DNA of 64,000 bases from Actinobacteria bacterium HGW-Actinobacteria-5. GTDB taxonomy: Bacteria > Actinomycetota > Actinomycetes > Propionibacteriales > Propionibacteriaceae. How positions within the stretch are numbered: position 1 is the first letter of the stretch; every line of letters starts with the position of its first letter. Both the position numbers and the translations under genes were made by a program. Positions 3,825 to 28,254 of this stretch are shown one piece after another. A model generated the notes under the pieces. It was not told the DNA's origin. It saw nothing but the letters and a program-made list of their open reading frames with translations, and ran no database searches. The stretch is from contig PHEV01000003.1 in the NCBI GenBank assembly GCA_002843035.1, positions 7,890 through 71,889 of the forward strand, written 5' to 3'.

Positions 3825-4147
3825 ACACCATTCTTGCCGGCATTTCCGCCGCGGCGACCACCTACCTGGCGCCGGCCGTGATCCCGCTGAAGATCTGCCC
3901 GAAGGCGCCGCCCGGCGCCCAGCAGTACGCCGACGACATCACCGGCTACGTCCTGTGGGGGGTGATCATCTTGTTCAGCGTCGGCGTGATCGTCGCCATC
4001 GGAGGCATCGTCGCCGGACGGATCTTCAACATGCCCCACGCCTCCAAGGCGGGGATCGTCGGGATCTTCGTCGTCCTGCTGGCCGCGATCGCCTTCGTGG
4101 TCGCCCCCGGCATCGTCGACAGCATCCTCGGCAACGGCTGCATCTAA
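3821..4147 (+). CDS. small membrane protein (VirB2/TrbC-like position)
   Basis: ATGA overlap at 3821. Two or three hydrophobic helices are present, and the gene sits in T4SS operon context. Confidence 0.6.
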   Translation: MNTILAGISAAATTYLAPAVIPLKICPKAPPGAQQYADDITGYVLWGVIILFSVGVIVAIGGIVAGRIFNMPHASKAGIVGIFVVLLAAIAFVVAPGIVDSILGNGCI

Positions 4148-6450: not shown

Positions 6451-6473
6451 AGGGCCGGGGAGGAGACAGGACC

Positions 6474-7979
6474 ATGGCCGTCTATGGCGAGTACACCCGG
6501 GACCGGGTCGGCATGTTCTTCGGGCTCACCGGGGCACAGCTGATCACGCTGGTCGTGACCGCCGTCCCCGCGCTGTGGGCCTTCCAGCAGGAGGAGTGGG
6601 GCCTGCTGGCCGGCTTCACACTGCTGTGGGTTGTGGTGTTGGGGATGGTGACCGTCCCGATCCGGGGCCGGTCCGCGATCGGCTGGATGGTGGCGGCCAC
6701 GGCGCACGCAGCCGGGACGGTGATGCGGTGGACGCAGTGGCGTTCGAAAGCGTCCAAGGGCCAGGTCGACGACCTGGCCGAGCCCGACCTGCCCGGTGTC
6801 CTGCAATCGGTGACGGTCCACGACGGCCCTCCCCAGGGCCCGACCAACACCCGGTTCGCGGTCGTCCAGGACCACGCCGGCCGGGTATGGGCGGCCACCG
6901 CCTCGATCACCCATCCCGGCCTGGCGCTGGCTGATGCAGCCGAGCGGGACAGCCAGGGCCGCGGCCTGGCGACCCTGCTGAACGCCTGCGCCCGCACCGA
7001 GCTGATCTCCGAGGTGCTGTTCATGGTCCGATCGGTGCCCGACGACGGTGCCGAACGCGAGCAGTGGCTGGCCCGCCACCGCTCGACGTCGGCGCCCGCG
7101 CTGGCGAATCTGGTGAACGACCAGATGGCCGCCACGCTCAGCCAGGCCAGCGTCCGCACCGAGGCGTTCTGCACGATCGTGGTGCCCGAGGACCGACTGG
7201 CGAAGGAGGCCAAGGAGTTCGGCCGCGGGGTGGACGCCCGGGCCCGCGCCATGGCCATGCTGATGGCCGAGGTGGAGGGCCATCTCCGCACCGGCATGCG
7301 GATGAGTTCGGTGGAGTGGCTGACCTCACCGCAGCTCGCCGCCGCGGTCAGGACCGGTTTCGCCCCCGGCGACAGGGCCGGCATCGTCGAGGCGTTGGCG
7401 GCCCGGGAGGCCGATCCCGCAGTCAACGCGGAGGTGCCGTGGGCCCAAGCTGGCCCGTCCGGCGCCGACCTGGTGGTGCGTCACTACGCCCACGACGCCT
7501 GGCACAGCATCTCCGCGACGGTGAAGCTGCCCGCCAAAGGCGCTGTGTTGGGTGCGCTGGCCCCTGTCCTGGTTCCCACCGAGCCGGGTGAGCGCCGCTC
7601 GATGGTGACGGTGTTCCCGATTCTCGCCCAGTCCACAGCCGACAAGCAGGTCCAGTCGGCGGAGTGGGCCGCAGACATGGGGGAGGGGCTGCGCTCCAGG
7701 GCCGGAATGAAGACCAGGGCCAGAGACCGCACCGCGGTGGCACGCACTCGCGGCCTGGACGCCAAGCTCGCTTCCGGCAACGCGATGGTGAGGCCGTACG
7801 CAGTCGCCTGCGTCACGGTGCCCAAGACGCAGCGCATCGCGGAGTTCGGACGAAGGCTGGACGCGTCGATCCGCCGCGCCGGGTTCGCCCCGCTACGCCT
7901 GGACCTGTCCCAGGACGCCGGCTTCGCCGCCGCCAACATCCCGCTGGGCCTGGGGCTGCACCGGAAGTCCGAGCAGTGA
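6474..7979 (+). CDS. membrane protein of the actinobacterial T4SS (SCO6880-like, VirB3/VirB4-N analogue)
   Basis: SD ggggaggag is present. Two N-terminal TM helices are seen. The gene lies immediately upstream of, and is translationally coupled to, the VirB4-like ATPase. The family name is from memory. Confidence 0.6.
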   Translation: MAVYGEYTRDRVGMFFGLTGAQLITLVVTAVPALWAFQQEEWGLLAGFTLLWVVVLGMVTVPIRGRSAIGWMVAATAHAAGTVMRWTQWRSKASKGQVDDLAEPDLPGVLQSVTVHDGPPQGPTNTRFAVVQDHAGRVWAATASITHPGLALADAAERDSQGRGLATLLNACARTELISEVLFMVRSVPDDGAEREQWLARHRSTSAPALANLVNDQMAATLSQASVRTEAFCTIVVPEDRLAKEAKEFGRGVDARARAMAMLMAEVEGHLRTGMRMSSVEWLTSPQLAAAVRTGFAPGDRAGIVEALAAREADPAVNAEVPWAQAGPSGADLVVRHYAHDAWHSISATVKLPAKGAVLGALAPVLVPTEPGERRSMVTVFPILAQSTADKQVQSAEWAADMGEGLRSRAGMKTRARDRTAVARTRGLDAKLASGNAMVRPYAVACVTVPKTQRIAEFGRRLDASIRRAGFAPLRLDLSQDAGFAAANIPLGLGLHRKSEQ

Positions 7980-9505
7980 ACACCGCCACGAAGGCCCGCT
8001 CCGGCCGACGGGTCGACCGGCTGCTCGCCGACTTCGGCCACGAGGTGCCGACCATCGCGCCGGCCGGGCCTGTCGTGCCGGAGCCGAGGCTGTTCCGGCC
8101 GGTCGGCCGGCGCGGCGAGCATCGCCCGGATCGGGGATGGTCGCCGGCGCCGGCCCCGGTGTCGGTGTGGCGGATGACCTCGGACCAGGCGCCGGTGCTG
8201 TGGCCCTTCGTCACCAGCCCGGCGATTCCCGCGCGCGGCGCCCAGATGGGCATCGACTTCCTGTCCCGCACGAGTTTCCATGCTGACCCCTCCGGGTGGG
8301 TGCTCGACCCCACTATTCCGGTGTCGAACCCGAACATGTTCACGTTCGGCAAGCCGGGGATGGGCAAGTCAGCGACGGTGAAGGCGTTCCTGCTGCGGAT
8401 GATGGGGTTCAACTACCGCGCCTTGATCCTGGGAGATCCGAAGGACGAGTACGAGCCGCTGTGCCGGGCGGTGGGGGTGGCGCCGATCGCGATCGGGCAG
8501 GGTCTGAGCGCTCGGATCAACCCGCTCGAGTTCGGGCCGCTGAAGACCGGATGGGAGCAGCTCGGCCCAACCGTGGCCCAGGAGCGGGCGAAGGTCGTCT
8601 TCTCCCGCTGGCTGACCTTGATCCGCGGCCTGGTGGGGTCCCAGAAGATCGGGTCGGTACCGGTGCCGTTCGGTCCGAGCGAGGAGACCGTGGTCGACGC
8701 GGCGTTGAAGATGCTCACCGGCTACACCGACGGGAACACCCGCCTGCAGGAGACAACCATCCCGGCGCTGTGGCACCTGCTGGATGACCCGCCGGCCGAA
8801 CTCGTCCAGCTATGCAGGTACGCCTCCGAGCGGCACTTCCTCGACGAGACCCGGCTGCTGAGGGATGCGCTCGGCAAGATGGTCGGCGGCACCCTGAAGG
8901 GCCTGTTCGACGACCACACCACGATCGACGTGGACTGGCAGGCGCCGATCCAGTCGCTGTCGCTGTCCCGGCTGGAGGGGCTCGGCGACGAAGCGATCGG
9001 CATGGCGCTGCTATGCCTCAACTCCTGGGGCAGGGCGATGCGGGAAGTCGCCGCCCCCGGCGACATGCGGATCGTGGTTCGCGACGAGGTGTGGAAGATC
9101 ATGCGCCTCGGCCTGGATGCGGTGAAGAGCCTGGACGCCGACCTGCGGCTGAGCCGGCGAGACGGCGACATCCAGTATGCGATCGGGCACAAGCCGACCG
9201 ATCTGGAGAGCGTCGGCGACTCTGGCTCTCAGGCGGCCCAGATCGCCAAGGATCTCCTGCACCTGGCAGACACCAAGATCCTCCACGGCCAGGACGCCGC
9301 CGTGGCACGGCACCTGGGAGAACTGCTGGAGCTGACCGAAACCGAGATCGGCTGGATCACCGACTGGTGCCGGCAGTCACCGGGCCGGGCGGTCTGGAAA
9401 GTGGGCGACTGGGTGTTCAAGGTCCAGACGATCCTCCACCCCGCCGAACGGGCCCTGACCTGGACGAACGCTTCGCTGGAAGCAGCAAGCGAGAAGTTCG
9501 GATGA
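7976..9505 (+). CDS. VirB4/TraC-like conjugative ATPase
   Basis: The GTG at 7976 overlaps the upstream TGA (GTGA). Walker A is GKPGMGKSA and Walker B is IVVRDEVWK. Confidence 0.8.
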   Translation: MNTATKARSGRRVDRLLADFGHEVPTIAPAGPVVPEPRLFRPVGRRGEHRPDRGWSPAPAPVSVWRMTSDQAPVLWPFVTSPAIPARGAQMGIDFLSRTSFHADPSGWVLDPTIPVSNPNMFTFGKPGMGKSATVKAFLLRMMGFNYRALILGDPKDEYEPLCRAVGVAPIAIGQGLSARINPLEFGPLKTGWEQLGPTVAQERAKVVFSRWLTLIRGLVGSQKIGSVPVPFGPSEETVVDAALKMLTGYTDGNTRLQETTIPALWHLLDDPPAELVQLCRYASERHFLDETRLLRDALGKMVGGTLKGLFDDHTTIDVDWQAPIQSLSLSRLEGLGDEAIGMALLCLNSWGRAMREVAAPGDMRIVVRDEVWKIMRLGLDAVKSLDADLRLSRRDGDIQYAIGHKPTDLESVGDSGSQAAQIAKDLLHLADTKILHGQDAAVARHLGELLELTETEIGWITDWCRQSPGRAVWKVGDWVFKVQTILHPAERALTWTNASLEAASEKFG

Positions 9506-9533
9506 ATAGTGACGGTTTCGGCGGGCCCAGCAC

Positions 9534-10631
9534 ATGAAGTGGGTGGGATTGTCTGTGGCGTTGGCCCTGGTCGTGTTCCTCGGGATCCCGATCGGGATCA
9601 TCACCGTGGGCGTGGTCGCTGTTGCGCCAGCCGTGCAGGAACAGATCCGGCAAGACCCGTGCAGCGCCTACGACACCGCCGCCACCACCTTGTCGGCCAC
9701 CAGCTCGACCGCCTCCAGCAGCAGCTTCGAACTGCCCCGATGGGGCACACCCCGACACCAGTCACTGAGCAGCCCGGCCCAGTCCATCCCGGCCCGCGTC
9801 AAGACCCTGTACGTCGCGGCCGCGAACCGCTACAAGATCCCTTGGCAGCTGCTGGCCGGCATCGGGATGGCCGAGACCCGGCACGGCCGCAACAACCGCA
9901 CCAGCTCCGCCGGCGCCCAAGGCCTGATGCAGTTCATGCCGGGCACCTTCCGCGCCTACGGGGTCGACGGCGACGGCGACGGGCGCCGCGACATCCACAA
10001 CGACGCCGACAGCATCTTCTCCGCCGCCAACTACCTGGTTCATTCCGGGGTCAAGAACGGCAAAGCCGGAGTGATCAGGGCGCTGTGGGCCTACAACCGG
10101 TCGATCACCTACCGCAACGACGTGCTCTACTACGCTTGGTCGTACGCCGGCAAAGCCGGGGTGGTGGTGTCCACCGAGGACCCCGACGACTGCATCCCCG
10201 TCGACGGTGACCTGCCCGGCTTCGACGACACCTGCGCGGCTTCCCACTCGGCGGCTGAGCGCGGCCTGCGGGCCACGGCGGTGCACGGACTGCGGTGCGT
10301 CAAGCAGGCGTTCCCGGCGATCACCAGCATGGGCGGCCGCCGCTCGAGCTCCTCGTCGACGTGCAGCTTCTCCGACCACTGCACCGGTCTGGCGGTGGAC
10401 TTCATGATCCCCAAGTGGAACACGCGTGCGGGCAACGCCTACGGCTGGCGGGTCGCGCACTGGGTGCAGGCCCACGCCAAACAGCTGCGCGTGAAGTACA
10501 TCATCTGGGACGTCAAGAAGTGGAACCCGTCGGCCGGCCAGAAGTGGCGGCCCTACCGGCATCCCTACGGCAACAGCAACCCGACCCTCGCACACAAGAA
10601 CCACGTCCACGTCAGCTTCTACGCCCGCTAA
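9534..10631 (+). CDS. secreted cell-wall hydrolase: lytic transglycosylase (SLT) plus C-terminal peptidase-like domain
   Basis: N-terminal TM/signal segment. SLT motifs GMAETRHG, GLMQFMPGTF and AANYL are present. The C-terminal part carries HCTGLAVDF...HKNHVHVSF, which looks like metal-binding His/Asp. Confidence 0.8.
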   Translation: MKWVGLSVALALVVFLGIPIGIITVGVVAVAPAVQEQIRQDPCSAYDTAATTLSATSSTASSSSFELPRWGTPRHQSLSSPAQSIPARVKTLYVAAANRYKIPWQLLAGIGMAETRHGRNNRTSSAGAQGLMQFMPGTFRAYGVDGDGDGRRDIHNDADSIFSAANYLVHSGVKNGKAGVIRALWAYNRSITYRNDVLYYAWSYAGKAGVVVSTEDPDDCIPVDGDLPGFDDTCAASHSAAERGLRATAVHGLRCVKQAFPAITSMGGRRSSSSSTCSFSDHCTGLAVDFMIPKWNTRAGNAYGWRVAHWVQAHAKQLRVKYIIWDVKKWNPSAGQKWRPYRHPYGNSNPTLAHKNHVHVSFYAR

Positions 10632-10643
10632 CCCGAGGAAGGA

Positions 10644-11158
10644 ATGCTCCTGATGATGCTCCAGTCGGGCCGGACAAAGGACCCGTACCCGTTCACCTGG
10701 GAGATCCCGGCCGCCGCTCTCGCCGTGTGGGTGATGCTGGCGGTCCTGACGGCCCACCTCGGCCGTGCCTTGGCGAACCTCACCTCCGGCGCCGGGTGGA
10801 CGTGGCCGTCCAGCCGGACCCTGTTCACAAGCTTGCCGGCGCTCTTGGCCGGCGACCCAACGGCGGCAGCCCCGCCTCCCTCGCCGGCTGGATCGTCAGC
10901 CTGCAGCTGCTGCTCCTGGCCGCCACCATCACCGGCGGCGTGTGGGCGGTGCGCCGCTGGGGCCCAGGACGGATGAAGGGCATGGCCAGCCGAGCCGAGG
11001 CCGAGGCCGTGCTGGGGCTCACCCGGCTACGGAAGGCCGCCAGGATCATCCGGCCCGACCTTCACCCCAACTCACCCGCGCGGGGCAACGCCGGCCCCCG
11101 CGGCATCCCCGACACCCAACCAGGACGCATGTCCAGCCGACAAGGAGAACGCACATGA
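10644..11158 (+). pseudogene. coupling-protein (VirD4/TraG-type) N-terminal transmembrane module; needs a -1 frame change near 10851-10870
   Basis: Frame of 10644 codes for MLLMMLQSGRTKDPYPFTWEIPAAALAVWVMLAVLTAHL...LLAGDP. The GC3 signal then moves to the frame of ORF 10295..11158, which codes for ...SLAGWIVSLQLLLLAATITGGVWAVRRWGPGRMKGMASRAEAEAVLG...RPDL. The end of this gene is ATGA-coupled to the next gene, so translation reaches 11158. Confidence 0.5.
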
Positions 11159-16106: not shown

Positions 16107-19100
16107 TCAGCGCTCCACTCCTGGCCGTTGGCTGCGGGTTGGGGTGTGGGCCGGCTCGATCCGTGGTTCGGCCGGATGGGGCGGCGTGGCAGCCTCCGGG
16201 TTACGGCGTGCGGCCTGGGCGGTGGCTGCGGCGGACAGGCGGTCCTTGACCTGTGAGGCCTGGTAGGCGGCCTGTTCGGCGGCCCGGCGAGGGTTCGCGT
16301 TCCAGGCCCGGACCATGCTGGCCAGTGAGGATCGGATCAGGGCCGATGGCAGACCGGTCTGTTCGGCGATGTGCTGGGCGCCGCTGGTCCACTGGTCAGG
16401 TGGCTGGGCGGCGAGCACCCGTACCGCGTCGAGCGCCGATTCGGCGCCCTCGAGGTTGGCCAGCCGCTCGTCGATCAGCGTCTCGCCGAGGGGTCTGGCG
16501 TTGGCGATCGCCTGGTTGAGGGTCTCGGCCTGGCCGGTGGCTACTAGGTCGGCCGGGTCGGCACCGTCGGGCAGTTCGGCGTAGGTCGGGTTGAGGTTGT
16601 ACATGGCGAGTAGCCAGTAGTCGCGTTCGGCTGCGACTCTTCCGGCCAAGTCGGCGTCGGTGGCGACGACAGGGGCCCGGCCAGCCCGGTGGAGCTGCGC
16701 GACCTGCTGTTCGGTGAGGCTGGTGCCCAACGGCGCGACCCCGACGTGCCGGCCGCCGCCGGCGAGGGTGACCGCGATCGCATCCATCGGCCCTTCGACG
16801 AGCACAGGGGTCTGGCCGGCTTCGAGGCTGCCGGCGATGTAGAGCTGGTCGCCCTTGTTGAAGACGGGGGTGGTGGCGGTGTTGAGGTACTTCGGGCCGC
16901 GGTTGTCGTCGTCGCTGTGGCCCGGGTTTCGCCGGGCGACGAAGCCGAGCACGGCACCGTCGTGGACGATGGGCACCACCGCCCGGTCCCGGAACCGGTC
17001 GATCAAGCGTCCGGTGGACGCGGTCTGGGCGACGCCGGATGTGAGCATTTCGGTGTCGGTGACGCCGTGGCGGCGGAGGTGGGAGACGAGTCCTGTCCAG
17101 CCGTCGGGGGCGTAGCCGGCTCGCACGGCGTCCAGCGCGGTGGTGTCGGTGCGGAGCCGATGGGTGAGGTATGGCTCGGCCCAGCTGCCGGGCAGACATC
17201 GCTGGTAGTAGGTGGCGGTGAGTTCGTTGATCTGCGTCAGTCGTGCTGCCGGCACTGGGCTTTCCGCGATCGCGTCGCCGCGCTCCATCATCCGGCGCAC
17301 GTCGGCATCGGTGGTGTCGGGGGCGCCCATGGTGCGCCGGATCATTCCCTCGATGGTGAGGACCTGCTCGTCGTCGGCGGTCAGGTCACCCTCGTCGTAG
17401 CGCACGGGGGGTTCGTCGATGGCCGGCTCGCCGGACGGCATCGGGGCAGGGTCGGCGATCGCGTCGACGACCGGGCCGGAGGGCTCCCAGCCGTCGTAGA
17501 GGTCGGCGGGTGGCGCCTGCCCGGGGTCGTCGCGGTCCTCCTCAGCTTGCTCGTGGCTGTCGGTGAGCAGTGACAGTCGCCACACCCATGCTTGACACAG
17601 ATCGGTGTGGCCGGCGTCGGTGAGGGTCTGGGTCTCTTGCAGGAGACGTTCGAGTGGCCAGCCGCGCTGCAGGCCGCGTTCGATGCTGGTGACCAGGGAG
17701 GGCCACCAGGGGCTGGACTGCAGGTCGCGGGAGATGTCCCCGACCCGGCCGGTGAAGTCGTCGAGCCAGGCGGTGGAGATGTGATGGTCGGTGTCGACGG
17801 CCTGGGCGACGGCGGGGGCGAGATGCTTCGCCAGGCGCCACCACAGGGCGGCTGCGGCGTGGTCGTCTGGCAGCGGCCCTTCGCTGGCGGCGGCGCGGAG
17901 GAGCCTGCCGGCGTCTACGCCGCTGGAGGACAGCTGCGACAGTCTCGCCGCCAGGACGGGGGCGAAGTCGTCGACCACCACGGCAGGCTCGATCCGGTTC
18001 AGCAGCGGAGACCATTCAGCGAGGGCCGCCGTCTGGGTGGATGCGAGTCGCGTTTCCAGGTGGGTCTGCCAGCGGGCCTCGGCCAGACCGTGGCGGCGCT
18101 CACCTGTCGGCCGGGTATCGCTGGGCGGGACGAGGGTCGCAGCCCGCCACACCTCGATGTCGGCCACGAGGTGGGCGCTGGGATGGCCAGTGGTCCCGGC
18201 GACCCAGTCCGGCTGGGTCGCGGACTGTGCGGTGTTGGTGCGCACCTGGTCGGCCAGCTCGGCAATCAGATCGCTGCGGGCGGCGAGATACGGCCCCCAG
18301 GTCGGGTGCTCTGCGAGCTGGCCGGGTACCCGGGACAGCCAGGGCAGTGGCCCGCGGTCGCCTCGCCACTCGGCCGCGGCCACGCGCCAGGCCAGCACTG
18401 AGCAGGGGTCGTGCGCGGTGGTCAGCGGCTCGGCGCACGCACGGGCGAGCGCCTCCACGGGGTCGCGCTGGTCGGCTTGGACCATCAGTAGCTGAGCCCG
18501 CAGTGCGGACCAGGTGGCGGCTTGGGTGAGCCGGGGGAGCGCATCGTCGACGGCCCGTTCCAGGGCGCGGACGCCGATGTCGCCGGCGACATGGGTGGCG
18601 GCGAAGCCGAGCGCGTCGCTGTAGCGGGCGCAGGCGTCCCCCAGCAGGAGCCTCGGGTCACCAGCTCGCCGCAGCTGGGTGGTTGCCGAGACCGGGGATT
18701 CGTCGCGGGCCAGGATTCGTTCCAGCATGTCGGTGGGGGAGAGCGGGTTGAGGGTCTCTGGCCTGATCACGGTGTGCTCATCTCCGTCACCAACGACGAC
18801 GACGTAGGCGTGGTTGGCGTCCCGGCCCCGGGTGAGCATCGTGTATGCCTGCTGCCGGGATTCGGCGCCGGTCAGGAGGCCGTGCATCGTGTCGGCGGTG
18901 ACGCCTTGAGCGGTGTGGGTGGTGCACGCGTAGCCCAGCTCGACCTGCTCGCTGACATAGTCCGCGGGCAGCACGATGTGGCGTCCGCTCTGGAGGTGTC
19001 TGGCCCGGATCGCGCCGTTTCGATGGACTTTCATCACCTCGAACCGGTCACCGTTCTTGACCCAGTCGGTGGCTGTGAGCTTCAGGCTGCGCTTGTTCAG

Positions 19101-21623
19101 GCGGGCGATGACGGTGTCGCCGGTGCTGGCCAGGTTGCCGTCGGGCAGGTCCACCGTTCGCCCGGCTGTCGTACCGGCGAGCCGTTCTGAGCGGGCACGC
19201 CGGTTGAGGTCTGCGACCAGCTCGCGGGTTGGGGCGAGCATGATCGAGTCCAGCCCGCCGGCACGGTCGGCGGACCAGGCGGCGAACAGATCATCGGCCA
19301 TGGTTGTTTCGTCACCGACGTGGACCCTGCGCTGGTCCAGGTAGAAGCCGAGCGCGGCGGTCTCGCCTTGCCGCAGCGACAACGACGCCATGCCTTCGGC
19401 CGGGTTGGAGAACCGGCGAAGCTCGGTGAGCCGCAGTGCCCCATGGCTGGCTTGGATGTCACGCAGCACTCCGCCGGCCCCGATCGCGGCCAGCTGCTGG
19501 TCGTCTCCGATCAGCCGCACACTGCCGCCTTGGTCCAGGATGAAGTCGACCGCCGCGTCCAGCGACAGGGTGTCGGCCATGCCTGCCTCGTCGATCACCA
19601 CCAGCGTCTTCGGCCCGATCCTCTTCTTCCACGATGCCGCAGCACCGTGACCCAGGTCCCAGATCAGCTTGGCCAGCGTGTCCGTCTTCCCGACGAGCTG
19701 GTCGCCGAGCCCGGCCGCCGCCGCGGCCGACGGGGCGAGCCCGAGCACGTTCCCGCCGCCTTCGACCCACGCCCGCGATAAGGCGCTCATCGCGGTCGTC
19801 TTGCCGGATCCGGCGGGGGCGATCGCCATCTGCACCCGGGCCCCGGAGGTTGCCATTTCGCGCACCAGCAGCACCTGCCCGGGGTTGAGCGTGATCCCGT
19901 TCGCCTCAGACTCCAGCAGCGCCAGGTCGATCGCGGTGCCGGGAACGACCATGCCGCCCCGCCTCCCGGCCGCAGCCACAACCCGTCCCTCCGCGGCCAG
20001 TACTGCGGCGGAGGTGTACAGCTGGGACCCGGCGACGGTGTACACGCTGGACCCGTCGCTGCGCCGCAGCAGGTCAGGTTCGGACGGCTCACCGGCCACC
20101 GGACGCGAAAGCGCTTCGCACCGGGCGATCGCACGATCCACGATCGCCTCCACGGTCCGGTCCAGGTTGGCCGCGGGCACCTGCGCAACCCTGACCGCCC
20201 TCAGCGCCTCCGCGTGCAGGTGCCAGGTTTGCCAGCTGGATCGACCCGCCTGGACGTGAGCGACGACGGTCGCCGCAGCCTCTTCCAGCCACGCGTCGTC
20301 GAGCCGCGGACCAGCCTTGGCGTCCGGGCGGAGCACCAGATGGATCATCGCCTGGATCCGCCGCTCGCCGCCGAGCGCCTGGCGCGCCTGCTCCCACCAG
20401 GCGGCGCGCTGCTCTGCAAGGGTGCGCGGCTCGTGCTTGGCCTCCCTCGTCTCCAGGGTCGCCTGCTGGGCCAGCGCGATCGCTTCTACAGGGGTCGGTG
20501 GGCGTCCGTGGCTGCGCTGGAACTGTGCGGCCAGTTCACGCCGCCGGGCCTCGATGCTGTGCCGCCTGGTCGACCACAGCTCGTTGAGAGCCGGGTCGAC
20601 ACCAACCAGTTCCCGAACCGGCCGCTTCCTCGGATCACCACCTGCCCGGGCGGCGAAACGGACACCGAGCGCCTCAGCGAGGTGGCGCTCCAGTGAGCTG
20701 TTGTAGGTCTCCGAGGCGGTGACCGCAGCCTTGTGGAGGACCCGGCCGTCGATCGACAGCCAGCGTCCGTCGTCGAGGGTTTGAACCTTGTTCGCTACCG
20801 CCACATGCGTGTGCAGATCCGGGTCCCCGGCCCTGCTGTCACGGTGTGTGAACGCCGCGGCGACCAAGCCTCGGACCTCGACCTGACGTACACCGCCGTG
20901 CCCGGTCCGGGTGAACAGCGCGTTCTCCTCGATGAACCTGAGCGCGTCGGCGACAGCCTGCCGGTGGCACTTCTCGATGGTCGCGGCGGTCTGCTGATCT
21001 GCGAGCGCCCACAGTGTCGACACGGACTTCACCGGTGAGAAGGTGAGGTCCCAGCCGGCCACAGCGGTTGTCTGCTGCCGGGACAGTTTTGCGATGTGCC
21101 CGGCGAGTTCCCGCTCATCCAGAGGGTCACGGCCGCGCTCGGCGCGGAACATCTCAAGCCCGACTTCGGTGCGGATCCGTGCCCGATCCTCGATCGCGAC
21201 CGACGCCTTGCGGGGCAGTCCGCGCTCCTTGTTCAACGCCTCCAGCCGTCGGGCAACCTCGATCCGGAAGGGAGACACGTCGTTGTCGTACACGTTGAAC
21301 GGCTGACCTAGCCGGGTGGCTTCGACGTAGTCCTTCTCGGTCAGGCCGCGGCCGGTCAGGGCCGCCTTCCGCTCAGCGGCGAGTGGGTGGTGGCCCGACC
21401 CGTACAGCGCCTGCATCTGTCCAGATGTCACCAAGTCGCCGGCGTTCAGGCCGTCGATCCCGGCCATGCCGGAGCCCATCCACTCCCCGGGCGTCTCGCC
21501 CTTCTCGGTGTAGTAGGACGCCAGCCCAGTGTGTCCCTTCTCGGTGGAGTCCATGGCCGCCACCTGCCGGGTCAGGTAGTCGTAGCCGGACCCGGCGGTG
21601 ATCCTGTGCAGGCTCATGGTCAC
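16107..21623 (-). CDS. traA: MOBF (TrwC/TraA-type) relaxase fused to a RecD-like helicase and a C-terminal DnaG-type Toprim primase
   Basis: N-terminus is MSLHRITAGSGYDYLTRQ...LASYYTEKGE, with the His triad DPDLHTHVAVANK. The helicase part has APAGSGKTT, VVIDEAGM, LIGDDQQL and TTHTAQG. The primase part has PKYLNT, VLVEGPMDAIAV and VVATDADLAGR. Confidence 0.9.
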   Translation of the reverse strand: MTMSLHRITAGSGYDYLTRQVAAMDSTEKGHTGLASYYTEKGETPGEWMGSGMAGIDGLNAGDLVTSGQMQALYGSGHHPLAAERKAALTGRGLTEKDYVEATRLGQPFNVYDNDVSPFRIEVARRLEALNKERGLPRKASVAIEDRARIRTEVGLEMFRAERGRDPLDERELAGHIAKLSRQQTTAVAGWDLTFSPVKSVSTLWALADQQTAATIEKCHRQAVADALRFIEENALFTRTGHGGVRQVEVRGLVAAAFTHRDSRAGDPDLHTHVAVANKVQTLDDGRWLSIDGRVLHKAAVTASETYNSSLERHLAEALGVRFAARAGGDPRKRPVRELVGVDPALNELWSTRRHSIEARRRELAAQFQRSHGRPPTPVEAIALAQQATLETREAKHEPRTLAEQRAAWWEQARQALGGERRIQAMIHLVLRPDAKAGPRLDDAWLEEAAATVVAHVQAGRSSWQTWHLHAEALRAVRVAQVPAANLDRTVEAIVDRAIARCEALSRPVAGEPSEPDLLRRSDGSSVYTVAGSQLYTSAAVLAAEGRVVAAAGRRGGMVVPGTAIDLALLESEANGITLNPGQVLLVREMATSGARVQMAIAPAGSGKTTAMSALSRAWVEGGGNVLGLAPSAAAAAGLGDQLVGKTDTLAKLIWDLGHGAAASWKKRIGPKTLVVIDEAGMADTLSLDAAVDFILDQGGSVRLIGDDQQLAAIGAGGVLRDIQASHGALRLTELRRFSNPAEGMASLSLRQGETAALGFYLDQRRVHVGDETTMADDLFAAWSADRAGGLDSIMLAPTRELVADLNRRARSERLAGTTAGRTVDLPDGNLASTGDTVIARLNKRSLKLTATDWVKNGDRFEVMKVHRNGAIRARHLQSGRHIVLPADYVSEQVELGYACTTHTAQGVTADTMHGLLTGAESRQQAYTMLTRGRDANHAYVVVVGDGDEHTVIRPETLNPLSPTDMLERILARDESPVSATTQLRRAGDPRLLLGDACARYSDALGFAATHVAGDIGVRALERAVDDALPRLTQAATWSALRAQLLMVQADQRDPVEALARACAEPLTTAHDPCSVLAWRVAAAEWRGDRGPLPWLSRVPGQLAEHPTWGPYLAARSDLIAELADQVRTNTAQSATQPDWVAGTTGHPSAHLVADIEVWRAATLVPPSDTRPTGERRHGLAEARWQTHLETRLASTQTAALAEWSPLLNRIEPAVVVDDFAPVLAARLSQLSSSGVDAGRLLRAAASEGPLPDDHAAAALWWRLAKHLAPAVAQAVDTDHHISTAWLDDFTGRVGDISRDLQSSPWWPSLVTSIERGLQRGWPLERLLQETQTLTDAGHTDLCQAWVWRLSLLTDSHEQAEEDRDDPGQAPPADLYDGWEPSGPVVDAIADPAPMPSGEPAIDEPPVRYDEGDLTADDEQVLTIEGMIRRTMGAPDTTDADVRRMMERGDAIAESPVPAARLTQINELTATYYQRCLPGSWAEPYLTHRLRTDTTALDAVRAGYAPDGWTGLVSHLRRHGVTDTEMLTSGVAQTASTGRLIDRFRDRAVVPIVHDGAVLGFVARRNPGHSDDDNRGPKYLNTATTPVFNKGDQLYIAGSLEAGQTPVLVEGPMDAIAVTLAGGGRHVGVAPLGTSLTEQQVAQLHRAGRAPVVATDADLAGRVAAERDYWLLAMYNLNPTYAELPDGADPADLVATGQAETLNQAIANARPLGETLIDERLANLEGAESALDAVRVLAAQPPDQWTSGAQHIAEQTGLPSALIRSSLASMVRAWNANPRRAAEQAAYQASQVKDRLSAAATAQAARRNPEAATPPHPAEPRIEPAHTPTRSQRPGVER

Positions 21624-21758: not shown

Positions 21759-21864
21759 GAGATCCCGTCAGAAGGGATTCATGCCCTGACTGGTACCTGT
21801 TCGTGTTCAGGGTTTGTAAGTAGAGCGCGCAGTCTGGTCGCGGGGATGGTGAAGCGCGGGGGCT

Positions 21865-22515
21865 TTAGCGGCAGGCGTGCTTGCCGATGGACACTTCGAG
21901 TGGTTCGACTTCGGGGTGGAGGTTGCTTTGGATGCCGAGGGTGATGCACTCGTTGGCTGTGGCGGTGAGGATGCCGCCTAGGAAGCCGGTGTAGGAGCCG
22001 TTGCACGATTCGAATCGGGCGGCCTTGGCGAGGTAGGGCGCGAGTGACCATCCGGGTGGTCCGGTCCACACGGTGGCGGGCACCCAGGCGAGTGTTGGGT
22101 CGCCGTGGATGAGCGTGATTTCGGCCCAGGTGACGCCGTTGCTGAGGTAGATCGGTGACTTGGTGAAGTACTGGGGTGCGTCGGCTGGGAGGTGGAGGTC
22201 GCCCTCGGTTGCCGGGATCGGGTCGAAGCCGGCTTTGCTGAGTGAGTCGAAGCCGACCCCGGCTGGGGTGAAGGCGACTGGGGTCGATCCGCTGGGTTGG
22301 GTGGCGTAGGCGTCGGCACAGAGCAGGCTGCCGGGCTTCGCTGTCGGGGTGGGAGCGGTGACCTAGGTCGGCGGCGCGGAGCTGCCCGGGCGGCTGGGTG
22401 GCGGGGCTGAAGGTGTGGTGATCGTGCAGGCGGCGATCAGGGGGAGCATGGCGGTGAGCATGGTCGCCGCTCGCGCGCGCCGGCGACGGTTTGGGGCGGT
22501 GGGGTCCGGTCTCAT
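21865..22515 (-). pseudogene. lipoprotein gene interrupted by one in-frame TAG (22363-22365)
   Basis: The ATG at 22515 gives MRPDPTAPNRRRRARAATMLTAMLPLIAAC, an Arg-rich n-region plus lipobox. A TAG occurs after codon 50. The same frame then continues without further stops to TAA at 21865-21867, and ORF 21865..22083 is its tail. Confidence 0.7.
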
Positions 22516-22659
22516 TGCTGTCTCCGCGTCGTTCGGCCTTGACCCGACTGTCGCTCATCGGGCGGTCGGTGTAAACACCGGCTGGCGGTGTCGGCACCGG
22601 TTTGGGAACGCGGGCTGGGTTTCGTTCGCCTGAAGGGTCTTGGTTGCCGCGGCGTGTTC

Positions 22660-24192
22660 CTAGCGGTTGGTGCCGGCGAGTGGGGTGTGGGCGCCGGCGG
22701 CGTAGCGCTGCCAGGTGTTGCCGGCTTCGGCTGCGATCTTCTCGGCGTGTTCGGCCTTGTAGCCGAGGAGGGGTGCGATGACGGCGGGTGGGGCTTGGAG
22801 GACGAGTTCGCGCAGTGCCCTGGAGCGGCCGGAGGCGTTGGGGATACCGAGGCGTTGGAGGTGGGCGCGGATGCCGGTGGGCTGGATGGGGTGGCCGGCG
22901 AGCCGGCCGGGGAAGAGCCAGTCGCTGCCGGTGTTCGCGGCGGGTGCGATGGTGGTGGCGTGTTCGACGAGGTGGGCACGGATGAGGGTGTCGAAGGGTG
23001 CCGGGACGGCCACGGCGGTGCCGGCGAGGTTGATGGTGAGGTCGTCGGGGCCGTCGGTGATGTCGGGCCGGCGCAGCGCGAGGATGCGTTGCAGAGGTTG
23101 GGCGTAGAGCAGGATCAGGGTGGCGACGACCCGGTCGACGGTGGGGATGGCCGGATCGTTGAGCACCCTGCGGAGGATCTCGAGGCGGCGTTGTTGGCTG
23201 ATCACCGCCGCAGGGTTGTCCCTGACGCGTGGGAGTCGCAGGCGGGGTGCGATCCGGGTACGGATGGCCCAGCTGAGGAAGTCTCGCGCGGTGGAGGTGT
23301 CGGACCAGGTGGCGGTCACCAGCCATGCGTCGAGGTGGGCTTGGGTGCAGCGTTCGAGGGGTCGGCCGGCGGCCTGCAGGTCGGTCAGGAATGCGGCGGC
23401 GACCCGGAGTTGGCGTCGGGCGGTCTGTTCCCGGTAGGGGCCGATGGTGCCGTTGGTGGCGGCGTTGCGGAGGTGGCGGTGGACGTGCCATTTGGCGTAG
23501 CGGGTGAGGATTTGGCGGTGGTCGGGATCGGGGATGGTGGCGAGCCAGCCGGGGAGCCAGCGTTCGAACCGGTCGAGGTAATGGTCGTAGTCGGGCAGGT
23601 TGCCGGCAGCGACGAGCAGCCGGCGGACGTAGGAGCCTGAGCGGGCTGGGGTGAGGCTGGTGATGCCGTCATGGGTGAGGGGGACTTGTCCGGTCGCGAT
23701 CTTGTGCAGCAGGGGCTGGACGTGCGGTTTGTTGAGCCACAGGATTCCGGTGCGGGGCCTGGGCATCGCGATGATCCGGTCGTAGAAGGGTTGGAGTTCG
23801 GGCCGGATCCGGCCGGTGCCGTCGTCGAGGGCGGTGGTGAGCTTGTCGCCGAGCACGCACCAGCCGCACGTCTGTTTGTGTTCCAGCCAGCCTTCCCGGC
23901 CGCAGCGGGTACAGGCCTGGCTGGGGATGCCGGCGCAGTCGGAGCACCACAGTTCGCCGGTGGGACCGCGGCCGGGCAGGAGGCGGTGGGTGTCGCAGCG
24001 TTGGCAGGTTCCGAAGGTTTCGGTGGCGGTGGCGTAGCAGCCCGAGCAGATCCTGCCGTCGGGCCAGTTGCGGATCAGGGTGATGATCTTTCCGCGGGCC
24101 GGTGAGGGTTCACGGGTGGCCAGTCGTGCGGGTCGGTGGCAGCGGGCGCACTTCAGGTTGCCGGGGTCAATGACCCGTGGCCGCGGGCTCAC
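22660..24192 (-). CDS. Cys-rich (zinc-ribbon) N-terminus plus tyrosine-recombinase-like C-terminal domain
   Basis: The GTG at 24192 overlaps the upstream TGA (GTGA). Several CxxC pairs are present (CARCH, CSGCY, CQRCD, CSDC, CTRCG, CGWC). The C-terminal fold is integrase-like, but the catalytic residues are not all evident. The listed 635-aa ORF N-terminus overlaps the HTH gene and is rejected. Confidence 0.65.
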   Translation of the reverse strand: MSPRPRVIDPGNLKCARCHRPARLATREPSPARGKIITLIRNWPDGRICSGCYATATETFGTCQRCDTHRLLPGRGPTGELWCSDCAGIPSQACTRCGREGWLEHKQTCGWCVLGDKLTTALDDGTGRIRPELQPFYDRIIAMPRPRTGILWLNKPHVQPLLHKIATGQVPLTHDGITSLTPARSGSYVRRLLVAAGNLPDYDHYLDRFERWLPGWLATIPDPDHRQILTRYAKWHVHRHLRNAATNGTIGPYREQTARRQLRVAAAFLTDLQAAGRPLERCTQAHLDAWLVTATWSDTSTARDFLSWAIRTRIAPRLRLPRVRDNPAAVISQQRRLEILRRVLNDPAIPTVDRVVATLILLYAQPLQRILALRRPDITDGPDDLTINLAGTAVAVPAPFDTLIRAHLVEHATTIAPAANTGSDWLFPGRLAGHPIQPTGIRAHLQRLGIPNASGRSRALRELVLQAPPAVIAPLLGYKAEHAEKIAAEAGNTWQRYAAGAHTPLAGTNR

Positions 24193-24536
24193 CGCTGGTC
24201 GGTATCGTGCACGACCTGGGCACGGATCGGCCGGACCCGGTCCCCGCGCGGGGTGGGCGCATCGTTGACGACCTTGCGGGAGGGCACGTTCGCGGACTCG
24301 ACCAGGATCAGCTCGTCCGGAGTGGTGGCGAGGATGTCGCACAAGGCGGCCAGAACGGTCAGATTGAGCCGTTCCGGCGGTGTGGTGACCAGCCGGTGAA
24401 CCTGTGAGGTGGACAGGTGCACACCCCGTTCGGCGAGCGGTTCGACCAGGTCGGTGGTGGCGAACATCCCGGCCTGGGCCATCACCTGCCGGAGCCGCCA
24501 GGTGTAAGAAACGACGCGTCGTTGACGGGTCATCAC
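24189..24536 (-). CDS. XRE-family helix-turn-helix protein
   Basis: ATGA overlap with the upstream recombinase stop. HTH segment is TTDLVEPLAERGVHLSTSQVHRLV. Confidence 0.7.
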   Translation of the reverse strand: MMTRQRRVVSYTWRLRQVMAQAGMFATTDLVEPLAERGVHLSTSQVHRLVTTPPERLNLTVLAALCDILATTPDELILVESANVPSRKVVNDAPTPRGDRVRPIRAQVVHDTDQR

Positions 24537-25666
24537 AGTCCTTTCCGTGCGGTTGCGGGCGAGTCATCGAGGACCTCGCCGACCAGGGCGTCCAAGGCCC
24601 GGCGCAGTGTCCGGGTCCGGTAGTCGGATGAGACGCAGGTGTAGAGAGCCGTGGTCGAGGCGTGTTCGTGGCCGACCTGTTCCTGCACGAACCGGGCGTC
24701 CCAGCCGTCCTCGATCAGGTGGGTCACGTACGAACGGCGCAGCGAGTGGAAGTCCAGCACGGGGTCCAGACCGATCGCGGTCCGTGCCTGGCGCAGCAGC
24801 GCGTCCACCGACGGCGACGTGATCCTGATCGCACGCTCCGACGGCCACGCGGCCGGGCCGTCACTGGCCAGGAAGGGCCGGACCTCGCCGAACCACTGCT
24901 CCAATACGGGCACCACCCACGGCCACACCGTGAGCACGCTGCGGCGTTTCGGCGGCGAGCCGCGCTGAGCCTTGCCGTAGCGCACGTACAAGGCGCCGTA
25001 GTTCCCGAACTCCGACGCCGCAGGGTTCGGCCCGAAGTCGACCACGTCCAGCATCCTGGTCTCGGTCCTTCGCAGCCCGAACGCGTACGCGGTCTTCAAC
25101 ATGGTCGCGTCCCGGAACGCCGGCAGCCAGCCCTTGCGACCGGCCATGCGTCGCTGCTCAACCTGGTCGTCGGCCCAGTCGAACAGCGCCTGTAACTCGG
25201 GCCGGGTGAACGCCCGCTTCCGAGGCTGGGACTCCACGTCGGCCACGTGCGCGGCCGCGTTGACGTCGTTGATCAGCTGGATCGGGTGAGTGCCGAACCG
25301 ACGCTCGCATTCCTCGGCCCACCCGTAAGCCGGGTCGGTGACGTACCGGCAGAAACCGCGCAGCGCGACCTGGTAGGAACGCACCGTGCTGTTTGCTATG
25401 TGGCGCACCGAACGTAGGTCAGCGAACCACTCATCAGACATTGCGGCCGTCCACAACCACGGCCACACGTCGTGGTGAGCCTTGAACACCCGCACCACGC
25501 GGACCGCCGCAACGATCGTCGATTCGGCCAAGTTCCTGGCGAGCATCTGGTTCCGCCAGCCCTCGATCATCCCCTCGAACACCTGCGTCTCCGGGTGCAG
25601 TAACGGCACGCCAGCAGGCAGCACCAGCTGCATCGAGCCCGCCGGTGACCCCGCCCTTCGCGCCAC
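24533..25666 (-). CDS. tyrosine recombinase (XerC/D-like integrase)
   Basis: N-terminal SAM-like core-binding domain. Catalytic motifs are GLRRTE (Arg), HSLRRSYVTHL (HxxR) and GHEHASTTALYT (His...Tyr). Confidence 0.85.
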   Translation of the reverse strand: MARRAGSPAGSMQLVLPAGVPLLHPETQVFEGMIEGWRNQMLARNLAESTIVAAVRVVRVFKAHHDVWPWLWTAAMSDEWFADLRSVRHIANSTVRSYQVALRGFCRYVTDPAYGWAEECERRFGTHPIQLINDVNAAAHVADVESQPRKRAFTRPELQALFDWADDQVEQRRMAGRKGWLPAFRDATMLKTAYAFGLRRTETRMLDVVDFGPNPAASEFGNYGALYVRYGKAQRGSPPKRRSVLTVWPWVVPVLEQWFGEVRPFLASDGPAAWPSERAIRITSPSVDALLRQARTAIGLDPVLDFHSLRRSYVTHLIEDGWDARFVQEQVGHEHASTTALYTCVSSDYRTRTLRRALDALVGEVLDDSPATARKGL

Positions 25667-25703
25667 AACCTCACCCCATCAGCATCGCGTCAGACGGGAC
25701 AAT

Positions 25704-25720
25704 ATCCCGTTTAACGGGAT
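25704..25720. promoter_or_regulatory. inverted repeat ATCCCGTttaACGGGAT (same half-site as the 22-bp flanking repeats)
   Basis: Perfect 7-bp arms located 38 bp upstream of the recombinase start. The nearby CCCATCAG (25675-25682) and CAGACGGGA (25691-25699) repeat pieces of the 25865-25886 site. Confidence 0.5.
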
Positions 25721-26096
25721 CGCGCAGCCGAGCGCGTAGCCAACCGCTGGTTCGTCGACAGCACTCGTCACGTCGAGCCGTGCGACCGCCAGCGACAGAA
25801 CACAACCGTCCCGCACCTGACCAGCACGGACGCCACGAACTCGCAGCCGATCAACAACGTTTGTGAGATCCCATCAGACGGGATTCGCAATGGTCTCGGC
25901 CTGGGTGCAAGAGGTGTGTGGGACTTGAACGGGGTCGATTTCGGGGGTTGGACGTGGCTGGTGGTGACGTGGCTCGGGTGGGTGCTGACGGCTGGGGTCG
26001 GGGGGACGTCGGGCGGGACTTTGGCTGGTGGTTGTCCGGATCGGGGTGGGGGTGCGGCTTACGGGTGCAGGAAGTTCGCTAGAGAGGAAGTTGCAG

Positions 26097-26405
26097 ATGG
26101 CTAAGCAGGCGTTGAAGCAGGCCGCGAGGATCAAGGTCCAGGAGGCGTTGGCGGCGAAGCAGCGGAAGCGGCTGGAGCGGGAGCGGCGCCAGGCTGCTCT
26201 GGCGGTTGATGTGTTGACCGCTGTCGCCGAGAGGGACGAGGCAGTCACGGTCACGGAGGCGGCGGCCGCCGCTGCGCTCCGGTCTCTGCTGGGGGAGGGG
26301 CTGAGCGTTGCGGAGGTGGTCGAGCTGTGCAGCGGCCAGGTCGACGTCAAGGAGGTTCAGCGGCTGTCGAGGATCGGGGTGGATCCGGCGGGGGCCGACC
26401 GGTGA
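26097..26405 (+). CDS. small hypothetical protein (Lys/Arg/Glu-rich coiled coil)
   Basis: SD gagaggaag is followed by the ATG at 26097. GC3 is high. Confidence 0.6.
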   Translation: MAKQALKQAARIKVQEALAAKQRKRLERERRQAALAVDVLTAVAERDEAVTVTEAAAAAALRSLLGEGLSVAEVVELCSGQVDVKEVQRLSRIGVDPAGADR

Positions 26406-27270: not shown

Positions 27271-28254
27271 ATGCCTGAGCCCTTCTTCGACGACGACCTG
27301 GTGACGCTGTATCACGGCCACGCCGGCGACGTGTTGGCCGGTCTGGCATCGAGCAGCGTGGGATGCATCGTCACCAGTCCGCCTTACTACGGTCTGCGCG
27401 ACTATGGGGCGCCGGGACAGATCGGAGCTGAGCCGACGCCGGAGGAGTATGTGGCCGCGCTGGTGCGGGTCTTCGGTGAGGCGCGGCGTGTGCTCAACCC
27501 TGACGGCACCTTGTGGCTGGTGATGGGGGACGCCTACTCCTCGGGCAGGCGGGCAGCGTCCAACCTCGCTTCCTGGTCGTCGGTGAACGGACGTGGCGGC
27601 GCGCACCGGATCAGGGAAGCGCAGCGGGGGCGGCATGGCGCCAGCGATCTGCCGCCGAAGAACCTGATGGGGATGCCGTGGCGGGTTGCGTTCGCCCTGC
27701 AGGACGACGGCTGGATTCTGCGGAACGAGATCGTGTGGGTGAAGCCGAACCCGATGCCCGAATCGGTGAAGGACCGGTTCAGCTGCACCCACGAGTCGAT
27801 CTTCATGTTCAGCAGGAGCCGTCGGTACTGGTTCGACCTGGACTCGCTGCGGCTGCCGCACTCGATGCGTCCGCAGCGTCGCCCCAACGGTCGCCCGTCC
27901 GACGCCACGCCGCGGCTCGGACAGCCTCGCCAGTCCTGGTCGACGTCGGTCCGCGATGAGGTCGGTGTGGATGGGCACCCGGCTGGCAGGAACCCGGGCG
28001 ATGTGTGGACCATCCCGACCGCGCCCTTCTCCGCCGCCCATTTCGCGGTGTTCCCTCCTGAGATCCCGCGCCGCGCTATCCGCGCAGGCTGCCGGCCGGG
28101 CTGCACAGTCCTGGACGTGTTCTCCGGCTCCGGAACGACTGGACTCGCCGCGGCCGAGCTGGGTCATCGTTACGTTGGCATCGACATCAACGCTGAGTAC
28201 CTTGGCTTGAGCCTGCGGACCCGTTTGGAGCAGCCTTCGCTGATCATCAAGTAG
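27271..28254 (+). CDS. orphan DNA methyltransferase, beta class (N4-C/N6-A, ParB-less)
   Basis: Motif IV is VTSPPYYGLRDY. The motif is near the N-terminus. The AdoMet motif VLDVFSGSGTTGLAA is near the C-terminus. No adjacent nuclease gene is present. Confidence 0.85.
   Translation: MPEPFFDDDLVTLYHGHAGDVLAGLASSSVGCIVTSPPYYGLRDYGAPGQIGAEPTPEEYVAALVRVFGEARRVLNPDGTLWLVMGDAYSSGRRAASNLASWSSVNGRGGAHRIREAQRGRHGASDLPPKNLMGMPWRVAFALQDDGWILRNEIVWVKPNPMPESVKDRFSCTHESIFMFSRSRRYWFDLDSLRLPHSMRPQRRPNGRPSDATPRLGQPRQSWSTSVRDEVGVDGHPAGRNPGDVWTIPTAPFSAAHFAVFPPEIPRRAIRAGCRPGCTVLDVFSGSGTTGLAAAELGHRYVGIDINAEYLGLSLRTRLEQPSLIIK

Follow-up and report, generated by a model that had tools for sequence, protein, structure and literature searches.

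The window analysed here, 64,000 nucleotides of contig PHEV01000003.1 of Actinobacteria bacterium HGW-Actinobacteria-5, harbours at 21788..25895 a mobile element of 4,108 bp, which is inserted intergenically in a conjugative element, with the relaxase gene on one side and a divergent gene for a 102-aa protein on the other, and whose genes are read from the minus strand. The first of them encodes Int (25666..24533), a canonical tyrosine recombinase of 377 aa (Pfam Phage_integrase, 9e-17) with a complete R-K-H-R-H-Y catalytic set (R199, K232, H307, R310, H333 and Y342). It is followed by the gene for a Cro/C1-type helix-turn-helix (HTH) protein of 115 aa (24536..24189; Pfam HTH_26, 7.8e-13) and by that for a Cys-rich protein of 510 aa (24192..22660), referred to below as the large protein. 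The HTH protein is translationally coupled on both sides. An initial annotation made from the sequence alone had described this coupling as one ATGA and one GTGA overlap; the coupling stands, but both gene junctions are GTGA overlaps, the ATG one base past the Int stop being only an alternative HTH start. The HTH protein matched only HTH families in Pfam and nothing in NCBIfam, and wherever genes have been called or annotated in a relative, its gene lies between those of Int and the large protein. Past this operon, on the same strand, lies a lipoprotein gene of 216 codons (22515..21865; lipobox LIAAC), whose open reading frame (ORF) had no match in a Pfam search and in which a single in-frame TAG (22363-22365) agrees with the nonsense inactivation noted initially. 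The TAG is polymorphic: it is replaced by CAG (A22365G, Gln) in the X3, X5 and X7 contigs, so that the gene is intact in other samples, while the X1 contig is identical to the window. Since the far end of the element, at 21788-21808, lies beyond this gene, the latter is inside the element and constitutes its cargo. The cargo slot varies in relatives, being occupied by an EamA transporter gene in the window-related copy of locus L001 and, in the P0005 element, by an ORF of 97 aa. An adjacent MFS transporter gene is a candidate occupant of the slot in Mycobacterium sp. SMC-4 and Mycolicibacterium aubagnense.

The locus is marked by repeated palindromes. Two 22-bp sequences, GAGATCCCGTCAGAAGGGATTC (21759-21780) and GAGATCCCATCAGACGGGATTC (25865-25886), lie in direct orientation on the plus strand and are identical at 20 of 22 positions, as initially reported and as found again by pattern search. 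A degenerate 22-mer allowing up to 3 mismatches returned two matches in the whole 64 kb, namely these repeats, and none in 100 shuffles; the pair is real and non-random. Three exact occurrences of ATCCC-N7-GGGAT were counted in the window, all at the element locus: within the two repeats (21762-21778 and 25868-25884) and at 25704-25720. This last copy, palindrome II (ATCCCGTTTAACGGGAT), had also been recognised correctly, and a degenerate copy, palindrome III (ATCGCGTCAGACGGGAC, 25684-25700), follows it at a distance of 3 bp.

The boundaries of the element were set from the empty backbones L059 and L065, from an X11 contig and from more than 20 independent insertions of relatives. Whole unoccupied backbones were found via homologs of the neighbouring 102-aa protein: in L059, L061, L062 and L065-L070 the relaxase gene and the gene for the 102/108-aa protein are 357-371 bp apart and the Int, HTH and large-protein trio is absent. 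Identity between the empty backbone L065 and the window is 93.7% up to 21787, and the match resumes at 25865, 30 nt of L065 (the palindrome and a 9-mer) matching both window repeats. The comparison of L059 (empty) with L060 (occupied), whose backbones are 99.85% identical and encode an identical 108-aa protein, places the joint between the element 9-mer GCAATGGTC and the target sequence TCGACCTGG. Breaks in Logan contigs coincide with both ends, the X3 contig beginning exactly at 21788 with another flank and the X7 contig ending at 25895, and a 501-nt Logan contig of run X11 joins 25896 directly to ...AGATCCCGTTTAACGGGATTCGATGCCCTT and continues to the relaxase start. Read on the plus strand of the window, the empty intergenic region has the form GAGATCCC-N7-GGGATTC GATGCCCTT (C/T)(T/C)G(G/A)CCTGG GTGCAAGAGGTGTG, and the 9-mers adjoining the palindromes keep to their own side, either element or target. 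The joint is located 7-9 bp outside the palindromes, the relaxase-side 22-mer ending 7 bp beyond the 21788 end and the other 22-mer lying 9 bp inside 25895. The relaxase-side copy is native target DNA, present in empty sites, and the copy at 25865-25886 is an internal site of the element; the repeats are respectively the B' (target DNA) and P' (element DNA) arms of a classical attL/attR pair. Occupied and empty alleles, a precise joint, and a palindrome plus 9-mer common to P' and B' are the features of a site-specific element. We therefore propose that 21788-25895 is an intact small site-specific integrative (transposon-like) element, composed of an Int/HTH/large-protein operon and a cargo slot and inserted in an attachment site of about 60 bp, a reading to which we assign a probability of roughly 0.85.

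The initial annotation had already placed a nested site-specific recombinase element beside the relaxase gene, which the empty alleles of the same backbone uphold, and had suggested looking for the uninterrupted single-copy site, now found in L059, L065 and X11. Its reading of the repeats was only partly right, in that they belong to recombination sites but are not crossover sites. Nor do they bound the element: 21759-21780 is present in the unoccupied L059, L065 and X11, 25865-25886 is internal, and the result named beforehand as telling against such bounds was obtained, with the relatives L002-L004 and L001 carrying, in other contexts, the same genes without the second 22-bp repeat. It was considered whether the repeats could nevertheless be tyrosine-recombinase core sites that delimit the element, with strand exchange in the 7-bp spacer. 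They are indeed real, direct and dyad-symmetric, and the window compared with L065 alone leaves the breakpoint ambiguous over the approximately 30 nt that match both repeats. This model is nonetheless very improbable, since the ATGCCCT at the relaxase-side copy matches the GATGCCCTT of empty sites, the GCAATGGTC at the Int-side copy travels with the element in L001, L013 and L060, a second palindrome is missing from the far end of the P0005 and L001 insertions, a -10-like box upstream of Int is flanked by a further pair of palindrome copies, and contigs break at 21788 and 25895.

Two observations were made at the relaxase-side joint. A 2-bp TC insertion is found at 21787/21788 in X3, X5, X7 and X16 and not in the window or X1, a type of junction variant that is unusual for tyrosine recombinases. 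In addition, a contig of run X13 fuses a diverged relaxase-start region (to 21636) directly to 21788, with 151 nt skipped, and a related backbone therefore carries the element nearer its relaxase gene.

The occupied site can be described as four segments. The target arm B' (21759..21787), outside the element, consists of GAGATCCCGTCAGAAGGGATTC followed by ATGCCCT (21781-21787). The far terminus of the element, distal to the large-protein gene, occupies 21788..21808 on the minus strand (reverse complement GAACACGAACAGGTACCAGTC), and the motif G(A/T)(A/T)CACG-N7-8-CCAGT(A/C) terminates the element in more than 40 related loci. The element arm P' (25865..25895) comprises palindrome I, that is GAGATCCCATCAGACGGGATTC, and the terminal 9-mer GCAATGGTC (25887-25895); it remains constant with the element across the contexts of L001, L013 and L060, and in every lineage the Int-proximal end shows an equivalent terminal 9-mer followed by a 17-22-bp palindrome of the form GAATCSC-N7-GSGATCTC. 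To the left of the element in the Int-to-510 direction, the target DNA (25896..25918) is made up of a 9-nt spacer, TCGGCCTGG (25896-25904), and the motif GTGCAAGAGGTGTG (25905-25918), whose reverse complement is CACACCTCTTGCAC; in the empty L059, L065 and X11 the spacer and the motif are contiguous with the relaxase-side palindrome. In the same direction, the empty site of about 60 bp reads CACACCTCTTGCAC, 9 nt, the 9-mer AAGGGCATC and the palindrome GAATCCC-N7-GGGATCTC. Among 24 distinct left junctions, nearly all show the CACACCTYYKGCAY motif and 9 variable nt in front of the Int-proximal end; the motif is always found on this side, and the outliers have spacers of 8 or 12 nt or were misparsed by the script. 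The 9 spacer nt can be wholly different between copies that are 99.8% identical, which is why this stretch was first taken as an internal hypervariable segment; the idea that the CACACC...GCAY block and its hypervariable spacer form part of the element, or an internal cassette, was discarded, the empty sites showing that they are target DNA. Two other proposals for the target were likewise set aside. A tRNA 3' end (TTCAAGT) was dropped on inspection, the flanking stems not pairing, and the motif is not a repeated sequence of the window, which contains a single exact copy of it and mismatched copies at chance level.

The two ends of the element are asymmetric and unlike each other, insertion occurs in one orientation, and the duplication amounts to 0-2 bp. 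As was pointed out initially, the gene set recalls Tn554, with a different gene order, and a copy-out mechanism of the Tn554/SE type could be envisaged, in which Int and the large protein would both be active and the spacer of the donor left junction would be carried to the next right junction. Such a mechanism would be in keeping with an ordinary recombinase accompanied by a large protein of recombinase fold and a small protein, with asymmetric ends, oriented insertion and the lack of a real target duplication, and also with the conservation of R369, R461 and Y497 in the large protein. We regard it as unlikely, because the right junction (CCAGTC/CCAGTA) stays constant across copies that all differ in their left spacers, the left spacer of one copy never reappears at the start of another copy's right flank, and at the window locus the 9-mer of the target adjoins the element end, either directly or with GA in between. 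Furthermore, the small protein is here a mid-operon HTH_26 protein, assigned to HTH families only in Pfam and to none in NCBIfam.

Mobility is evident among relatives. The P0005 large protein, 69% identical to that of the window, is encoded in a 3.7-kb unit that recurs at 99.6-100% identity in at least five unrelated contexts, and it is indexed in 210 blocks of the assembly collection. In GTDB genomes, 43 loci of the family were recorded, some genomes being multicopy with sharp common boundaries, such as Kribbella sp. CA-294648 and the metagenome-assembled genome (MAG) MFD05705. The Kribbella loci L027, L029 and L050 are approximately 92% identical and have TTCAG beyond CCAGTA on the right, their flanks being otherwise unrelated. 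The order of the trio is kept from Propionibacteriaceae to Streptomyces and Mycolicibacterium, and only these three core genes are present in every locus examined. A megablast search of the element against PLSDB gave no match. The best hint of a circular form comes from a distant family member in Paenarthrobacter ureafaciens AT, where the circular record pD (4,712 bp) corresponds exactly to the repeat unit of a tandem pair carried by plasmid pA; the period of the pair is 4,714 bp, and the junctions differ by 2 bp (AC). It could be argued from the shared backbone position of the trio in the window, L001, L004 and L060, and from a palindrome that is native to the backbone, that the trio is a housekeeping module of the conjugative element, devoted to multimer resolution or to the integration of a whole integrative and conjugative element. 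This possibility is hardly credible in view of the near-identical backbones that have no trio, the near-identical trio units in unrelated contexts with several copies per chromosome, and the combination of variable cargo with sharp conserved ends.

The large protein contains six CxxC pairs at residues 15-112, followed by a body of tyrosine-recombinase fold. An integrase-like character had been proposed for it initially, and this is in line with the AlphaFold2 model (pLDDT, the model's confidence score, of 79; C-terminus poorly modelled), which Foldseek matched to XerH, XerA, lambda Int, Cre and Tn1549 Int over approximately 300-350 columns, with a best E value of 6e-6. On the basis of this model the protein has a tyrosine-recombinase fold that is seen by structure only: there was no sequence match in Pfam, NCBIfam or the PDB, where searches with the single sequence and with a profile returned no recombinase and only a marginal match of the L37e zinc-ribbon type, and hhalign comparison of the family with Int, over the full length and the C-terminal part, was not significant. 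Residues R369, R458, R461, Y478 and Y497 are conserved and the beta-hairpin Lys is not. The former could correspond to Arg I, His, Arg II, His/Trp and the nucleophile, respectively, a mapping that, given the non-significant hhalign result, rests on motif inspection and the fold match.

The family of the large protein comprises 3,805 clusters at 50% identity with E <= 1e-3, and 720 with E <= 1e-30; it is found on 260 PLSDB records and in many chromosomes, and the homologs of the 510-aa protein number in the hundreds, many of them on 3-4-kb contigs. Besides short forms of 470-560 aa there exist long forms of 630-880 aa, and the two that were examined (762 and 806 aa, in L071 and L072) show the same order of Int, HTH and long protein. 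Where members are annotated at all, they appear as 'hypothetical protein', 'recombinase XerD' or 'XRE regulator'. Long forms of about 730-806 aa (L071 3417-5705, PLSDB) bear the labels 'XRE family transcriptional regulator', 'Cro/Cl family' and 'phage integrase family protein', and their N-terminal extensions had no Pfam match.

Palindromes II and III are also a family trait. In 14 lineages, such a pair is located about 164 bp inside palindrome I and about 25-45 bp upstream of Int. On the strand of Int, a TAnnnT box arises where the two palindromes meet, about 40 bp upstream of the gene; its variants across lineages are TATTGT, TATTCT, TAATCT and TAGTCT. A scan for sigma-70 promoters returned nothing in this high-GC DNA. 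A palindrome pair arranged around a -10-like box throughout the family fits an HTH operator better than a tyrosine-recombinase core, and from this layout palindromes II and III are probably an operator pair for the HTH protein over a -10-like element. As regards the target palindrome, its arms are kept among the window, L059 and L065, and its 7-nt spacers differ (GTCAGAA, GTTTAAC and GTCAGGC); the spacer in L059 is that of the element-internal palindrome II (25704-25720).

We propose the following mechanism for the site-specific element. At the window, insertion separated the 9-nt spacer from the 9-mer and duplicated 0-2 bp. The P' arm of the element (9-mer and palindrome) now follows the target motif, and the B' arm of the target now follows the other end of the element, which gives rise to the two direct 22-bp repeats. 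In general, integration would occur next to the CACACCTYYKGCAY motif at a fixed distance of 9 nt, a backbone site with a matching palindrome being the preferred docking site. Excision would generate a circle joining ...CCAGTC to GACCATTGC..., with the predicted junction ...GAACACGAACAGGTACCAGTC(0-2 nt)GACCATTGCGAATCCCGTCTGATGGGATCTC..., and the regenerated empty site would read ...GGGATTC(G)ATGCCCT(T)TCGGCCTGGGTGCAAGAGG... The DNA chemistry may be performed by Int. The HTH protein may act on the 17-bp palindromes, repressing the operon at II and III and, at site I and the target palindrome, helping to build or aim the recombination complex. It can be hypothesised that the large protein, as a second or degenerate recombinase subunit, reads the asymmetric arm represented by the CACACC...GCAY motif and the GAAyACG...CCAGT end. 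At the left junction a full target-like site is restored, so that further copies can accumulate, as is seen in pA with its tandem pair, in L001 with its two elements and in L003 with its end remnants.

Some individual loci provide additional details. The MAG contig L001, from Propionibacteriaceae, carries two family elements (1-1965 and 6300-10733) within about 9 kb, with an IS110-family transposase gene between them, and an AbiJ-like gene lies between the window-related copy and the relaxase gene. At L003 6181-6240, a second right-end-like sequence (GGCCGGTACCAAGTCC) is located about 40 nt past the end of the P0005 element, which points to a remnant left there by an earlier insertion. In L021 (~425-460), the 12-nt spacer AGGACGCCAGGA equals the last 12 nt of the far-end motif of the same element (3820-3831), and to judge from this identity it looks like a former tandem or circle-type junction.

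Several points weigh against the proposal of an intact site-specific element with this mechanism. The searches found no sequence-level similarity of the large protein to recombinases, and a forced, non-significant alignment puts Arg I off by one residue and lacks the beta-hairpin Lys. The 2-bp junction variants, TC in the window lineage and AC in Paenarthrobacter, are not accounted for by the proposal. The circle in Paenarthrobacter could have arisen from the tandem pair during assembly, and the circle junction of the window element was not found in the Logan contigs of eight runs, an absence that weighs weakly because contigs drop rare forms. The three copies of Kribbella sp. CA-294648 have in common the target-like motif, the spacer and another 11 nt on the left, an agreement beyond what a preference for the target would by itself predict, but the collapsed-repeat contig L026 begins just inside that block; the unit that moves in this lineage may be slightly longer, or the target itself may be repeated. 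Finally, the assignment of the proteins to their sites is a matter of inference only.

The backbone around the element includes, on the relaxase side, a TrwC relaxase-helicase-primase gene of 1,838 aa (16107..21623, minus strand; Pfam TrwC 5.7e-87, AAA_30, DNAG_N and Toprim), whose start at 21623 lies 136 bp from the left repeat, exactly as initially measured. On the other side, the 102-aa gene (26097..26405, plus strand) is divergent from the relaxase gene, and in empty backbones 357-371 bp separate its homologs from that of the relaxase. A backbone N6/N4 DNA methylase is encoded by one 327-aa ORF in the window (27271-28254) and in L064; in L059-L061 (L059 8197-9181) it is split into ORFs of 163 and 166 aa, probably by a frameshift.

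The nearest known systems are the Tn554 family, the SEs and GInts, and the actinobacterial Tn554-related pairs (PMC3414803, PMC10214605, PMC12486829, PMC5385486). Similarly to the element described here, members of the Tn554 family (Tn554, Tn553, Tn558 and Tn6674, from Staphylococcus and Enterococcus) have asymmetric ends without terminal inverted repeats, insert in one orientation with no real target duplication, probably pass through a circular form, and carry their cargo behind the core genes. They are set apart, by description and by Pfam and NCBIfam matches, through the order tnpA-tnpB-tnpC, as opposed to Int, HTH and large protein. In the present element, a Cro/C1 HTH_26 protein takes the place of TnpC or Srap, and the large protein has three CxxC modules resembling zinc ribbons, while its sequence shows no detectable similarity to recombinases. 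Copy-out with a carried spacer is the mechanism of the Tn554 family and SEs (PMC10214605, PMC12486829), whereas in our element no carried-over spacer of 6-7 bp is seen, right junctions being constant while left spacers differ; the target is a motif of about 14 bp plus 9 nt, and the hosts are Actinomycetota.

Closer to the present hosts, Van Houdt et al. 2012 (PMC3414803) described actinobacterial Tn554-related pairs in which an abnormally long recombinase (611-828 aa) is combined with a short one, TnpC being absent in some cases. These pairs share with our element the phylum, a plasmid-rich habitat, short and long recombinase-type genes in one direction and identical copies on different replicons, and the 762-806-aa long forms of the L071/L072 trio offer a further parallel. 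The 'abnormally long' recombinases of that survey may correspond to the long forms of the present family. None of the accessions in the table of that survey is among the matches listed for the large-protein family; the survey reports no HTH gene, ends, target or empty sites, and the short forms of 470-560 aa fall outside its size range. The SEs and GInts, compared by description, are likewise multi-protein tyrosine-recombinase elements with target specificity, a small accessory protein and a recombinase-fold protein (Tfp/GinC) without a clear catalytic motif. They differ in having four core genes (intA-tfp-intB-srap or ginABCD) and two catalytic recombinases, compared with three genes and one clear catalyst, in carrying from site to site a 6-bp fingerprint of which none is seen in our element, and in host phylum. 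RIT elements are also small mobile units of three co-directional overlapping genes, but these encode three canonical tyrosine recombinases and are bordered by 34-bp terminal inverted repeats (PMC10214605), whereas the middle gene here is HTH_26 and the ends are asymmetric, without terminal inverted repeats. In the literature, no description was found of the Int-HTH-large trio, its ends or its target.

The position of the target leads to a more speculative proposal. The conserved target (palindrome, 18 nt and GTGCAAGAGGTGTG) might be part of the origin of transfer (oriT)/relaxosome site, in which case the family would home to transfer origins, rebuild a working copy at the left junction and hitchhike on conjugation while leaving it functional, by means of one catalytic recombinase, a catalytically degenerate zinc-ribbon targeting subunit of recombinase fold and an HTH adaptor. 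The GGTGTG core of the target presumably bears a loose resemblance to the nic regions of F-like MOBF relaxases. We consider this proposal to be a long shot.

At the level of the family, the element belongs to a very large and essentially uncharacterised actinobacterial group. The recognition of Int, the HTH protein and the large protein as one unit with defined ends would allow an abundant cargo-carrying element to be annotated in actinobacterial genomes and plasmids, including those of Streptomyces, Rhodococcus, Mycobacterium and Arthrobacter, by the 9-mer and palindrome at one end, GAAyACG...CCAGT at the other, and a target consisting of CACACCTYYKGCAY and 9 nt. The element also offers a compact system in which to study how a zinc-ribbon protein of recombinase fold and an HTH protein may direct a single catalytic recombinase to an asymmetric site. 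As its preferred site lies beside a relaxase gene, the element is a ready-made hitchhiker on conjugative elements.

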